A DNA stretch of 64,000 bases from a virus. Lineage: Duplodnaviria > Heunggongvirae > Uroviricota > Caudoviricetes. Both the position numbers and the translations under genes were made by a program. Numbering within the stretch: the stretch's first letter is position 1; each line of letters starts with the position of its first letter. Under the pieces are notes generated by a model. The model made no database searches. It worked only from the letters and a program-made list of their open reading frames with translations, and had not been told where the DNA came from. The stretch lies in the IMG/VR virus record IMGVR_UViG_3300029702_000002; one strand, given 5' to 3'. Below are positions 2,170 to 4,661 of the stretch, in pieces.

Positions 2170-2342
2170 AACTTAACAAATACCTTTATAAATATTGATT
2201 CGAACATATCAGACTATACTACAAACAGATTTTTTTGATAAGTATGTAGTAACTTATTGATTGACTAGTAAACAATTGAAGTGATTACGACAATAGATTA
2301 CAGTAAGGATTGCCTTGAAATGTACATTTTATAGAGGTTTTA

Positions 2343-3251
2343 ATGATTGGTAAGTTGTCTGATTCTTTGATTGAAAATAAATACAACGAATTTAGAGAAG
2401 AAATATCTTTACTTTTTGACTATTTAAATCAGATAAATGATACAACAAAGAAAAATATAAAACGTCTTCTTAAAGAAGTGGAGTATGCACAAAATCCAGA
2501 TACTATTATTAATATTAATGAAACTATTAAGATTAAGTGTGGCACAACGTTAGCTCGCCATTTATGTTCAAACCCATATACAGGTTCAACATTAGAGATA
2601 GGTAACAGCGCCATTGATTTAGAAGAAAAGATAAGATTGTGTAATACTTTGAAAAATAAACAATATCAGTGGGTTATTACTGAAGCCTATGAGTTACTGG
2701 AAGACTATATTGAGGCAATATATGTCTATACTGTATGTGTTCGAAATGATTTATGGTCCTCAAGTGATTTTGGTAAGGTTGAAGATGATGAAATTGGGAA
2801 AAGGGAAGTTTATTACAGATTATTAAAAGCAAAAAGTAACCCATCGAAAAAAATAACTAAAATTTTCAGAAATAAAATACCTGGCTTCAAAGAGATAGAA
2901 ACAAACAACAAGATTGGCAAAAACTATCGCTTTAACATCAAGCTAATTGAACTACTAAGACATACAATAGTACACAATAGTGGACGATTCAATGATACAG
3001 AAAAATTTATAAATAAGGTTTTAGATGAATCTGAAATAAACGGTAAGAAAAGAGTTATTGGAGAAAGAGCTGTTAGAAGTTACATTACTAAAGTGCAAGA
3101 AGATGATATTGTGATGCTCTTAGAAAGACCATCTGAAATTTTAGGTTCTTTTGGTGGGTATTTTAACAGAGCAAAATTTTTACTAAGTGATATTTTAGAA
3201 TACTCACTAATCATTAAAGAAGAACTAAAATCATATCTAGGCAATCATTAA
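2343..3251 (+). CDS. AT-rich hypothetical protein with HEPN-like Rx4H motif (LRHTIVHNSG); candidate abortive-infection protein
   Basis: 302-aa ORF with markedly lower GC than neighbours; R-x4-H motif in C-terminal half; own terminator. Confidence 0.5.
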   Translation: MIGKLSDSLIENKYNEFREEISLLFDYLNQINDTTKKNIKRLLKEVEYAQNPDTIININETIKIKCGTTLARHLCSNPYTGSTLEIGNSAIDLEEKIRLCNTLKNKQYQWVITEAYELLEDYIEAIYVYTVCVRNDLWSSSDFGKVEDDEIGKREVYYRLLKAKSNPSKKITKIFRNKIPGFKEIETNNKIGKNYRFNIKLIELLRHTIVHNSGRFNDTEKFINKVLDESEINGKKRVIGERAVRSYITKVQEDDIVMLLERPSEILGSFGGYFNRAKFLLSDILEYSLIIKEELKSYLGNH

Positions 3252-3252
3252 C

Positions 3253-3282
3253 AAAAAAGGGGCCGAAGCCCCTTTGGATTTT
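3253..3282 (+). terminator. Intrinsic terminator (AGGGGC-CGAA-GCCCCT followed by T-run)
   Basis: GC hairpin plus U-tract directly after stop of 2343-3251. Confidence 0.65.
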
Positions 3283-3429
3283 GCGCTTAAAAAAGTGTTG
3301 CTAGGATGTTAGCAAGCTATGGTTAAGAACGTCTGCCGTAATTGTCTATCACAGCGTTGAGCTGTCTGGTTTATGTTAGCGGAGTCTTAATCGAGTTGAT
3401 TAAAAGGCCAAACCGCTCAACGCTGTGTC

Positions 3430-3516
3430 TGGCGGAGAGTAATGGAATCGAACCATCATCGCTTGCGCAATGGGACGGTTTTCAAGACCGCTTGAGCACC
3501 ATGCTCCCTACTCTCC
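3430..3516 (-). tRNA. tRNA-Ser (anticodon UGA), long variable arm, CCA encoded
   Basis: Manual cloverleaf: acceptor GGAGAGT/ACTCTCC, anticodon loop CUUGAAA, T-loop TTCGATT, 3' GCCA. Confidence 0.85.
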
Positions 3517-3729
3517 AATTGTTGTGGTGCCGGGTGCTTCCCGGTGTCCTTTGGCTGGTTATCCACCGTGGACGGAGCCAATAGTCATCACAAAGGATCA
3601 ATATAACCATTTCCCCGCGTGCGCTTAGCCGCATTCACCACAACGAAAAGAGCACTGTATGACGTTTGCACGGACTTACGCTTCAAACAGGGCAGTCTCG
3701 GCGGTTCTCAATGCTCTTTCCTGTTGTGT

Positions 3730-3805
3730 TGGTGCCGGTTAACGGATTCGAACCGCTGACATCCTGCTTACAAGGCAGGTGCTCTACCAACTGAGCTAAA
3801 CCGGC
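3730..3805 (-). tRNA. tRNA-Thr (anticodon UGU), CCA encoded
   Basis: Acceptor GCCGGTT/AACCGGC, D-arm TAGCTCAGTTGGTAGAGC, anticodon loop CUUGUAA, T-loop TTCGAAT. Confidence 0.9.
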
Positions 3806-3807
3806 AT

Positions 3808-3882
3808 TGGCGATGGTGGGTGGATTCGAACCACCGACCAGTTGGTTAACAGCCAACTGCTCTACCGCTGAGCTACACCATC
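3808..3882 (-). tRNA. tRNA-Asn (anticodon GUU), CCA encoded
   Basis: Acceptor GATGGTG/CACCATC, anticodon stem GTTGG/CCAAC with loop CUGUUAA, T-loop TTCGAAT; 2 nt from tRNA-Thr. Confidence 0.85.
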
Positions 3883-4342
3883 AATTCGGCACTGCCAGTA
3901 TTTATTACTCAACAGTGCCAATCGCGACGGTTTAGTTTCTGCCAGGAAACGCACCGCTACTTGCACTTTTCGTTAGTGCCAGACGCTTTCGACTTCGCTC
4001 AATAGTAGAAGGCAAAATCTTTAAGTAGATGATGTTTCTGAGGACTGCACCTACTTTGTAATTTATACAATGTGATGTATGGAATCATTTGTTGTGAAAA
4101 CAGGCACCAATGGCAACAGTGGTTAAACCTACACAACTATCCTGTCTTCACAACGTTGAGGCCACTACTCCGATTGAATGTTTGCCCAACATGTTACATA
4201 TCAACGCTCGCCGGTATCTCTGTGAATAGAACCTTAGAATTGATAAAAATGTAATGGCCTCAACGTTGTGTGCTGGCTAACCATACCAGCCGGGCTACGT
4301 CGCCGCTTTTTAACCCAGTATAAACGACATAATTGAACAAAA

Positions 4343-4457
4343 TGACGTAACAGGATGGGCGGTCATTGGCTAAGAATCCGGGAGTCGTATATGAGTTGAA
4401 AATATACTGACCGCCCATCCTGTTACTTCATCGGAGGGAACATTCATGTTCCCTCCT
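4343..4457. ncRNA. Candidate structured RNA: 23-bp near-perfect inverted repeat (4343-4365 / 4408-4430, 42-nt loop) immediately followed by 10-bp GC hairpin (4434-4457)
   Basis: Arms TGACGTAACAGGATGGGCGGTCA and its complement read directly; no ORF support; next to tRNA cluster. Confidence 0.35.
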
Positions 4458-4661
4458 GCGTTCTGCAATCACACTCGCTCAGTGTGTCCCATTTCGGTAA
4501 CGAGGCTGGAAACTGACCTCGCTGGTGTTTGGCTTATTAGGCTACTGCCAGATAGACTTCTTCGTTTGCACTTGTATTTAAGTTCAAACAGTCGCGTCTC
4601 AACGAAAACAAAGTCATCTTATACATAAAAGATAAGTAAGTAAATACTTATCATTGTGTTT

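Follow-up and report, generated by a model that had tools for sequence, protein, structure and literature searches.

A probable tmRNA-derived, message-only RNA gene on an SSU5-type phage-plasmid and its relatives on enterobacterial phages

Here we describe an RNA gene on the minus strand of a 64,000-nucleotide (nt) stretch of IMG/VR record IMGVR_UViG_3300029702_000002 (hereafter the window), which is an SSU5/pHCM2-type phage-plasmid with 97-100% identity to Escherichia phages CMS-2020a and Cyrano and to Escherichia coli plasmids of ~110 kb. The gene runs from ~4611 to 4149 (~460-475 nt), and its 5' 165 nt (4447-4611) form a module that is common to unrelated enterobacterial phages. Based on comparative analysis, it is very probably the SSU5-type member of a family of message-only RNA genes derived from transfer-messenger RNA (tmRNA; ssrA) and carried by enterobacterial phages and phage-plasmids. 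The overall reading that we favour, and consider rather likely, is that this tmRNA-derived RNA acts on, or through, the tmRNA of the host.

The original prediction for this region (3430-4457) had singled out three transfer RNA (tRNA) genes and two hairpins, the latter as a possible structured small RNA or tRNA-processing element. While the hairpins do lie inside the RNA gene, most of the message module lies outside that interval, and the RNA is read on the opposite strand. As to its kind, the structured RNA was recognised correctly, given conserved helices and compensatory changes; it is not, however, a unit of its own, but the 3' extension of the RNA that spans ~4611-4149.

The message module and its distribution

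The tag frame (4569-4534, minus strand) reads GCA AAC GAA GAA GTC TAT CTG GCA GTA GCC TAA TAA, which reads as ANEEVYLAVA followed by two stops; the predicted peptide is similar to ANDENYALAA, the ssrA tag of E. coli. Upstream of the frame comes AUACAAGU, with an A at position -4, and the minus-strand core reads ...AAAUACAAGU and then GCA. Position -4 corresponds to A86 of E. coli tmRNA, which is the main frame-setting nucleotide of that molecule, U85C and U85G being tolerated (PMC2481249). The A at -4 is found in 166 of 166 copies, and the sequence upstream of GCA is AUA(A/C)NU. In ~120 of these 166 copies an in-frame stop occurs 5-20 codons upstream with no ATG, GTG or TTG in between (in pHCM2, pMT, and Enterobacter relatives, this stop is a TGA six codons before the tag). 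Like tmRNA, the module therefore has a resume codon that is reached without a start codon and is led by a conserved upstream signal.

The frame comprises exactly 10 codons and a stop in every copy, with UAA, UAG, and UGA all in use. Across two sets of copies, ~24 tag peptides were seen, ending in AVA, MAA, AAA, IAA, VAA, or QAA; pHCM2 and pMT encode ANEDTYLAVA, and ANDNQYLAVA, ANDNVFLAVA, ANDDVVLMAA, ANDDLMLMAA, ANDNYALAAA, and ANDSEIRVAA are found elsewhere. Synonymous changes account for 24% of codon differences in the tag frame (415/1709), compared to 1% (22/1664) and 8% (135/1653) in the other frames, and amino acid replacements in the tag frame are conservative. A short tag frame with a hydrophobic or alanine-containing end, a stop, and coding constraint is thus present, as in tmRNA. 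When the copy of Citrobacter phage Moogle was analysed with ARAGORN, a 'resume consensus' and the tag ANDNVFLAVA with two stops were reported. None of six representative tag strings turned up in the papers searched. Flynn et al. (2001) are said to have established that SspB reads AAND..Y of the ssrA tag and that ClpX reads its terminal LAA. The phage tags keep the SspB motif and, in the LAVA group, alter the ClpX motif, and a changed fate of proteins bearing them is therefore conceivable.

Downstream of the resume codon, the stop codon lies in a helix formed by CUGG (4551-4548) and CCAG (4525-4522), the counterpart of tmRNA helix 5 (4522-4551, minus strand). Its outer pairs are invariant in 62 distinct sequences and one pair covaries, with relatives encoding other tags having CUGAU/AUCAG. 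Two H-type pseudoknots follow. Pseudoknot A (4487-4521, minus strand) has a first stem of CGAGG (4521-4517) and CCUCG (4505-4501), in which three of five pairs covary, and a second stem in which the loop sequence UUCCA (4511-4507) pairs with UGGGA (4491-4487). The latter occurs in six complementary versions, namely CCGA/UCGG, CCAA/UUGG, CCAG/CUGG, UUCCA/UGGGA, UUCCA/UGGAA, and CUCCA/UGGAG. Pseudoknot B (4458-4486, minus strand) has a first stem of CACAC (4486-4482) and GUGUG (4474-4470) with two covarying pairs. In other lineages its second stem is GCCCG/YGGGC, GCCCUGA/UCAGGGC, GCCCAC/GUGGGC, GGCGGGAG/CUCCCGCC, or GACGGGAGG/UCUCCCGUC; in SSU5-like elements it is degenerate, with an invariant 3-bp GCG (4478-4476)/CGC (4460-4458) only. 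Over the module alignment, 94.5% of cells are paired, compared to at most 40% when partners are slid. Covariation thus backs the helix at the stop codon as well as the two pseudoknots after it. No counterpart of tmRNA pseudoknot 1 (PK1) or helix 2 was recognised in the module.

A tRNA-like domain (acceptor stem with G3.U70, T arm, and CCA) was found neither by ARAGORN or Rfam nor by reading the minus strand by eye, and T-arm-like hairpins (GCUGGU...GCCAGC) and the tRNA genes that follow, which were also considered, do not recur consistently from lineage to lineage. With ARAGORN, neither the window nor 161 of 162 contexts gave a tmRNA. The sole call, a 'permuted tmRNA' in Moogle, was rejected, since each of its tRNA-like halves is taken from upstream tRNA genes, three tRNAs lying in between. 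Searches of the window against Rfam at gathering and permissive thresholds returned tRNAs and an STnc100-like RNA only, with no tmRNA even at E <= 10. In relatives, the Rfam tmRNA models scored 11-29 bits, below the gathering threshold of 47, and matched model positions 56-295 or 83-140 of 374 only, which belong to the message part; conversely, our custom model gave no hit on E. coli ssrA. Given that no member of the family has a tRNA-like domain, we regard the product as a message-only, tmRNA-derived RNA and not as a tmRNA. Likeness to ssrA outside the leader and tag was also sought, and exact k-mers over the whole 475-nt RNA, on either strand, proved no commoner than in shuffled sequences; an apparent T-loop match (UUCAACUC, located in the long hairpin's loop) and a PK1-like GGGCGGUUGG were attributed to chance and discarded.

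Relatives from Enterobacter, Salmonella Typhi (pHCM2), Cronobacter, Klebsiella, and Yersinia pestis (pMT) keep the non-coding stretch 3884-4661 with 77-81% conservation; in pMT, caf1R lies directly beside it. BLAST located this stretch in unannotated DNA of 317 phage and 773 plasmid records, and it was present in 258 of 5426 complete E. coli genomes, nearly always on plasmids. In addition, hundreds of unrelated phages have unannotated DNA that matches positions ~4467-4621. In Felixounavirus (Felix O1-like phages) the module lies inside the tRNA array and is co-oriented with it; in Webervirus-like Klebsiella siphoviruses and Aeromonas phage pIS4-A it lies just upstream of, and co-oriented with, tRNA-Arg and tRNA-Met; and in the P22-like phage HK620 it lies between pR'/qut and the late terminator in the orientation of the late transcript. 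Its orientation is always that of the neighbouring tRNA genes or late transcript, corresponding to the minus strand of the window. The linkage to tRNA genes itself varies: tRNA-Asn lies ~670 nt away in SSU5-like elements, tRNA-Arg(UCU) is the neighbour in siphoviruses and Felix O1-like phages, and HK620 and several others have none.

Pattern scans were performed on viral contigs (three scans) and on species-representative genomes (one scan), one of them being anchored on the downstream pseudoknot with the tag left unconstrained. Together they recovered more than 250 module copies. The species-representative scan yielded three true hits among 185,579 genomes, all in Enterobacterales, and no relatives with a tRNA-like domain or from distant hosts; the family seems to be confined to elements of Enterobacterales. 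A covariance model built on 22 sequences found a single copy in the window (4447-4611, minus strand; 121 bits, E = 4e-20) and one copy in each of 71 of the 72 sources searched, the sole miss being the host ssrA.

Some relatives carry further RNA features beside the module. In a prophage relative (L146), a Sib antitoxin RNA (107.8 bits) follows at 1600-1748, and a 17-nt match to the 3' end of tmRNA, 570 nt downstream (1957-1973), is probably an att-site remnant of integration into ssrA. In phage wV8 (L002) the module is directly followed by an odd tRNA-like gene (2322-2400, minus strand; Rfam tRNA, 31.7 bits) that has no D arm, a UCU anticodon loop, a 20-nt variable insert, and an alanine-identity-like acceptor stem (C1-G72, G3.U70, A73, and encoded CCA). 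Other Felix O1-like phages have a normal tRNA-Arg(UCU) in its place.

A promoter-like site precedes the gene at 4616-4644 (minus strand), with TTTACT (4644-4639), a 17-nt spacer, and TAAGAT (4621-4616), which places the predicted transcription start near G4609. It matches 8 of 12 consensus positions, and for this reason was not listed by a consensus scan. Its hexamers and spacing are invariant in SSU5-like relatives (TATGAT in Klebsiella), and TTGACA-17-TATAGT/TAGATT occurs at the same place in Felix O1-like and siphovirus relatives; we infer a promoter here. The original prediction had described a region without credible open reading frames (ORFs), and this agrees with our results: the ORFs of 32-60 amino acids (aa) across 4072-4628 lack Pfam matches, as do all overlapping or neighbouring small ORFs, and are broken by insertions or deletions (indels) in relatives. 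The E. coli lineage has a 29-aa ORF, MYKMTLFSLRRDCLNLNTSANEEVYLAVA (4625-4534, minus strand), whose ATG lies inside the predicted -10 and whose frame is closed by a 1-nt indel in other genera.

Hairpins of the 3' half and neighbouring genes

The comparative alignments show that the two hairpins of the original prediction are conserved RNA helices in the 3' half of the minus-strand non-coding RNA gene, and that they are specific to the SSU5 lineage. A repeat finder recovered both: the long inverted repeat has arms of 24 nt (4342-4365 and 4408-4431) that are 96% complementary, with one A.G mismatch and 42 nt between them, and the GC hairpin is a perfect 11-bp stem (4433-4443/4446-4456) with a 2-nt loop. 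On the minus strand, 4338-4460 folds at -62.2 kcal/mol, compared to -28.6 +/- 3.7 in 200 dinucleotide shuffles (z = -9.1; none of the 200 as good), and the fold is equally stable on the plus strand. The minus strand was assigned as the RNA strand because G.U pairs, which would be A.C on the other strand, are frequent in the helices.

The 3' regions of 50 distinct SSU5-like relatives were aligned, and helices were additionally derived with RNAalifold. Both hairpins are kept in these relatives. The GC hairpin (4433-4456, minus strand) shows 3, 10, 21, and 16 compensatory double changes at four of its pairs, and its loop ranges from 2 to 13 nt. The long hairpin (4342-4431, minus strand) consists of a 24-bp stem and a 42-nt loop that contains a small inner hairpin, and is followed by UUUUGUU. 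Its arms are nearly invariant and change mostly to G.U, AU to GC and GC to AU double changes being found in the most divergent group (L116, L137, and L172); its loop is variable save for UCCCGG. The U-run that follows is not conserved, being replaced by UUUCCAUUAC in relatives, and conservation runs on downstream of it. Rho-independent termination was considered for both hairpins and rejected, the GC hairpin having no U-run on either strand and the long hairpin having a 42-nt loop and a U-run that is not kept.

Further 3' helices were identified by RNAalifold on the same strand. UUAUGUCGUUU (4332-4322) pairs with GCGGCGACGUAG (4332-4295 overall), and GCUGGU (4290-4285) forms a hairpin with GCCAGC (4277-4272; 4290-4272 overall). 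Sequence within 4272-4332 is nearly invariant, with one-sided changes and a single GC to AU double change. Two long hairpins were found beyond those already noted, I2 (4149-4270) and I3 (3350-3427). I2, on the minus strand, has a 20-bp stem beginning with CACAACGUUGAGGCC (z = -6.9) and shows many double changes, such as GC/AU exchanges seen 14 and 20 times; it is the probable 3' boundary of the RNA unit. The Y. pestis pMT sequence is kept exactly through I2 and then diverges into the caf1R region. In the Pestoides F pMT (L107, 1480-1967), which lacks the tRNA genes, the module is intact, as are all the 3' helices up to and including I2, and the caf1R/F1-capsule locus directly adjoins the end of the RNA. 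In the place of PK3 and PK4 of tmRNA, SSU5-like elements have the GC hairpin, the 24-bp hairpin, and the helices that come next, probably as stabilising or processing structures. Their 20-24-bp stems resemble substrates of RNase III, and a partial terminator role may also be inferred.

The three tRNA genes named by the original prediction were all called by ARAGORN on the minus strand: tRNA-Ser(UGA) at 3430-3516, tRNA-Thr(UGU) at 3730-3805, and tRNA-Asn(GUU) at 3808-3882. The latter two were also found with Rfam (76 bits each), while at tRNA-Ser only tRNA-Sec matched (44.6 bits, gathering threshold 47). Because of this strand, the hairpins do not follow the tRNA genes, as had been stated, but lie upstream of them in the sense of transcription. 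A DNA ligase gene and three small ORFs, which flank the region and occupy 6632 to 4662, lie on the same strand, and the RNA gene is thus placed between the small-ORF cluster and the tRNA genes, co-oriented with both; the whole unit may be co-transcribed with the tRNAs. The distance from tag start to tRNA-Asn is 634-698 nt in most SSU5-like relatives that have tRNA-Asn, and 583 nt in one. tRNA-Thr and tRNA-Asn are ~90% identical to trnT and trnA of phages P1, P7, and D6, which indicates that the tRNA cassette, but not the RNA upstream of it, is common to unrelated phage-plasmid families.

An STnc100/PasD-like small RNA (sRNA) lies at 3494-3662 on the minus strand (Rfam RF02076, full model length), its 44.1 bits falling below the gathering score of 47. 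It corresponds to a 205-bp insert between tRNA-Thr and tRNA-Ser that is missing from phage Cyrano, in which these two genes are 8 nt apart. The insert is bracketed by the inverted pair CACAACAGGAAAGAGCAUUG/CAGUGCUCUUUUCGUUGUG, which also brackets variable cassettes after the module in siphovirus relatives. I3 (minus strand; repeat finder) shares CACAGCGUUGAG with I2 in its arms. I2 precedes the tRNA block and I3 follows tRNA-Ser, while in pHCM2 an I3-like hairpin follows tRNA-Asn; hairpins with stems starting CACA(A/G)CG...CG(U/C)UGUG recur at RNA and tRNA cassette boundaries, including just upstream of the module in L188-type loci, and may be RNase III processing sites or recombination boundaries. 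A strong intrinsic terminator at 3275-3256 (minus strand) probably ends the RNA/tRNA operon. A 302-aa ORF without a Pfam match (2343-3251, plus strand) is convergent with this operon, the bidirectional terminator at 3256-3275 being common to both. A Klebsiella relative has an AbiGi-family gene in its place, and the slot may be a variable site for defence cargo.

Proposed pairing with host tmRNA and competing explanations

The 5' leader (4570-4611, minus strand) has the predicted 5' end (UA)GUUUUCGU, which is invariant across lineages. E. coli K-12 ssrA was used as the comparison target, and complementarity was evaluated using RNAduplex and alignment to reverse-complemented ssrA against 500 dinucleotide shuffles. 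In the RNAduplex prediction, GUUUUCGUUG (4609-4600) is complementary to ssrA 95-104, which are tag codons 2-5, and GCGACUGUUU (4595-4586) is complementary to ssrA 82-91, comprising the frame-setting -8 to -1 region with U85 and A86 as well as G90 and C91 of the resume codon. In siphoviruses, the leader is antisense to ssrA 56-107 (RNAduplex z of -4 to -5.5). Shuffles as good as the real leader numbered 0-1 of 500 for the Felix O1-like, ANDEQF, and ANDNTF groups and 5 for siphovirus ZCKP8, with weaker results for HK620 (13) and the ANDTQY group (22). Leader alignments fell at ssrA 68-111 in every lineage. Of the 12 positions of a seed 12-mer, 10-12 pair with the host tag and 5-9 with the RNA's own tag in all variants, and the seed is fixed while codons 3-6 of the RNA's own tag vary. 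Where the leader does vary, the positions map to the internal loop predicted for the leader-ssrA duplex.

These observations suggest, tentatively, that the RNA works by base pairing with host tmRNA, through either substitution of the tag template or a block of the host template. The leader would pair with host tmRNA over a stretch that begins at the 3' side of PK1 and takes in U85/A86, the resume codon, and tag codons 2-5, which would mask the host message and tether the phage message, with its own resume signal, beside PK1. Since the RNA has no tRNA-like domain, ribosome entry would have to be borrowed: the host tmRNA-SmpB complex would supply an alanyl-tRNA-like entry and the phage RNA the template. 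The outcome would be, in effect, a hybrid two-piece tmRNA with a changed tag, here AANEEVYLAVA instead of AANDENYALAA. The coding signature of the tag frame argues for its real translation. A simpler version would be pure antisense inhibition of trans-translation. In the most far-reaching and rather doubtful version, enterobacterial phages and phage-plasmids in general, pHCM2 and pMT1 among them, would encode a message-only RNA that docks antisense on host tmRNA beside PK1 and swaps the tag template; host tmRNA-SmpB would still rescue stalled ribosomes but would add a tag specified by the phage, the result being a hybrid, host-parasite two-piece tmRNA.

It is important to note that several points weigh against our preferred reading. 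The leader of the window's own lineage is not significant alone (112 of 500 shuffles as good; RNAduplex z -1.6), and the argument therefore leans on the homologous leaders of other lineages. The leader also forms weaker helices with its own resume region, and a cis role is possible. The target site is invariant among hosts and thus offers no covariation with the leader. We know of no message that enters the ribosome by a non-covalent tether to the message region of tmRNA. The promoter-like site of this lineage is weak by consensus, and a literature search for expression of the RNA gave none: two published pMT1 sRNAs of Y. pestis, sR082 and sR083, map elsewhere on the plasmid and were rejected as candidates. 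In the E. coli lineage only, 26 further codons upstream of the tag are open in its frame, which has an ATG at 4625. Finally, in one relative (L064, 3248-3734) a natural deletion of 39 nt has taken away the GC hairpin together with the long hairpin's 5' arm while sparing the module, and these two hairpins may thus be dispensable.

Several other explanations address the same evidence. Were the RNA purely an antisense inhibitor or decoy that binds host tmRNA (perhaps also S1 or SmpB) and stops trans-translation, with its tag frame never translated, the leader's complementarity across U85/A86, the resume codon, and the first tag codons would be accounted for. It is known that tmRNA loses its activity when the resume codon is enclosed in a helix (PMC2481249), and a partial phage tmRNA, that of mycobacteriophage DS6A, has been proposed as an inhibitor (PMC4131195). 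We nevertheless consider this unlikely, as it leaves unexplained the exact 10 codons and stop, the A at -4, the conservative replacements, the 24% synonymous share, and the ~24 tag variants. The lack of a tRNA-like domain, the degenerate pseudoknot B of the SSU5 lineage, the L064 deletion, and the UUUUGUU after the long hairpin in the window would all fit a functionless, decaying remnant of a complete phage tmRNA, with hairpins that are merely tRNA-operon terminators or RNase III sites. This is very unlikely: no fewer than five unrelated phage groups maintain the module, showing compensatory and synonymous changes together with a leader that does not vary; its sequence is almost unchanged from E. 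coli to Yersinia pMT and S. Typhi pHCM2; and the U-run is not kept, with conservation extending past it.

The inverted repeats could also act as DNA, as a replication origin, a single-strand initiation or recombination site, or a protein-binding site, given that the hairpins fold equally on both strands, that the 24-bp arms are conserved in sequence rather than via covariation, and that CACAACG...CGUUGUG repeats recur at module boundaries. However, G.U pairs, which would turn into A.C if the opposite strand were read, occur in many helices; coding and promoter features tie the adjacent module to one strand; and the GC hairpin and I2 vary in sequence yet keep their pairing. All of this makes a DNA-level element highly improbable. 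Normal initiation of the frame, yielding a peptide of 10-29 aa ending in ...LAVA, has its best case in the window's lineage, where the open upstream frame offers TTG codons as well as the ATG at 4625. The chance of such a small protein gene is slight: the ATG falls within the predicted -10 region, there is no Shine-Dalgarno sequence, the longer frame is broken by a 1-nt indel in pHCM2, pMT, and Enterobacter and Klebsiella relatives, and ~120 of the 166 copies have the upstream in-frame stop with no start codon after it. The role proposed originally, as a tRNA-processing element or tRNA-operon leader, would suit an RNA that is next to and co-oriented with tRNA genes in most lineages and has 20-24-bp stems that could be RNase III sites. 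It is scarcely tenable, as the 1.3 kb around the module are free of tRNA genes in HK620-like phages and in several other groups, and pMT has lost its tRNAs and keeps the RNA. An RNA derived from tmRNA that acts on, or through, host tmRNA remains our preferred reading.

Relation to known systems

A message-only relative of tmRNA on mobile elements is unrecorded in an exhaustive tmRNA survey (PMC4131195). Should an action on host tmRNA hold true, this would be the first known case of trans-translation being reprogrammed or blocked by a natural RNA, and phages would be seen to contest ribosome rescue as well as tRNA supply, the module sharing cargo islands with phage tRNAs. This would bear on the pathogen plasmids pHCM2 and pMT1 and on the SSU5-like phage-plasmids found in ~5% of complete E. 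coli genomes, and nature would have provided a scheme for retargeting the ssrA tag in trans. Whether or not this mechanism is right, the family is widespread, well structured, missing from Rfam, and mis-called or uncalled by annotation pipelines. ARAGORN calls of 'tmRNA (ssrA)' are mentioned without analysis in genome announcements of Moogle (PMC4319497) and Felix O1 (cited in PMC4392139). These refer to the same element (Moogle tag ANDNVFLAVA), accepted there as a permuted tmRNA; its wider family and leader are not described in those notes. A literature search for tmRNA-like or antisense phage RNAs gave nothing specific.

Among RNAs of comparable setting, the prophage anti-sRNAs AgvB and AsxR and the Pas/STnc100 sRNAs are likewise cargo beside tRNA genes or in late-leader regions of enterobacterial phages, and some of them pair with host non-coding RNA; an STnc100-like copy lies 800 nt away in the window. 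They differ in sequence and structure, and none has a translatable tag frame or a tmRNA target. Pas sRNAs, considered as a possible identity of the phage RNA, are described as terminator-ended Hfq sRNAs in a paper that gives no sequences, and were set apart on that description.

With bacterial tmRNA (SsrA; RF00023) the phage RNA has in common an A-rich tract with A at -4, a start-less GCA resume codon, a 10-codon tag of the form AN[DE]xxx..A(A/V)A with one or two stops (ANDENYALAA in E. coli), and, as predicted with support from covariation, a helix that holds the stop codon and H-type pseudoknots after the tag. Unlike tmRNA, it has no acceptor stem, T arm, or CCA, and therefore cannot be charged or enter the A site alone; it also has no recognisable PK1 or helix 2, has a leader predicted to be antisense to tmRNA, and, in SSU5-like elements, has long hairpins in place of PK3 and PK4. 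Two-piece (permuted) tmRNA occurs in Alphaproteobacteria, cyanobacteria, and some phages, such as phage Melnitz (PMC9004378). Its coding piece is held to its acceptor piece by pairing alone, which makes it the closest mechanistic analogy to the proposed hybrid, but both pieces come from one gene and each gives one strand of the tRNA-like domain. The phage RNA gene, in contrast, encodes no acceptor piece, and its proposed pairing is to the host message region; the Rfam tmRNA_permuted model scored 20-29 bits on its relatives (gathering threshold 47). A 2014 survey of ssrA in RefSeq phages and plasmids listed only mycobacteriophages, Bacillus phage G, and the 'TLD-only' DS6A (PMC4131195). Like the present family, DS6A carries part of ssrA on a phage, and this part has been proposed to interfere with host trans-translation (PMC4131195). 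While DS6A keeps the tRNA-like half, the family described here keeps the message half, and the two are thus mirror images of one another.

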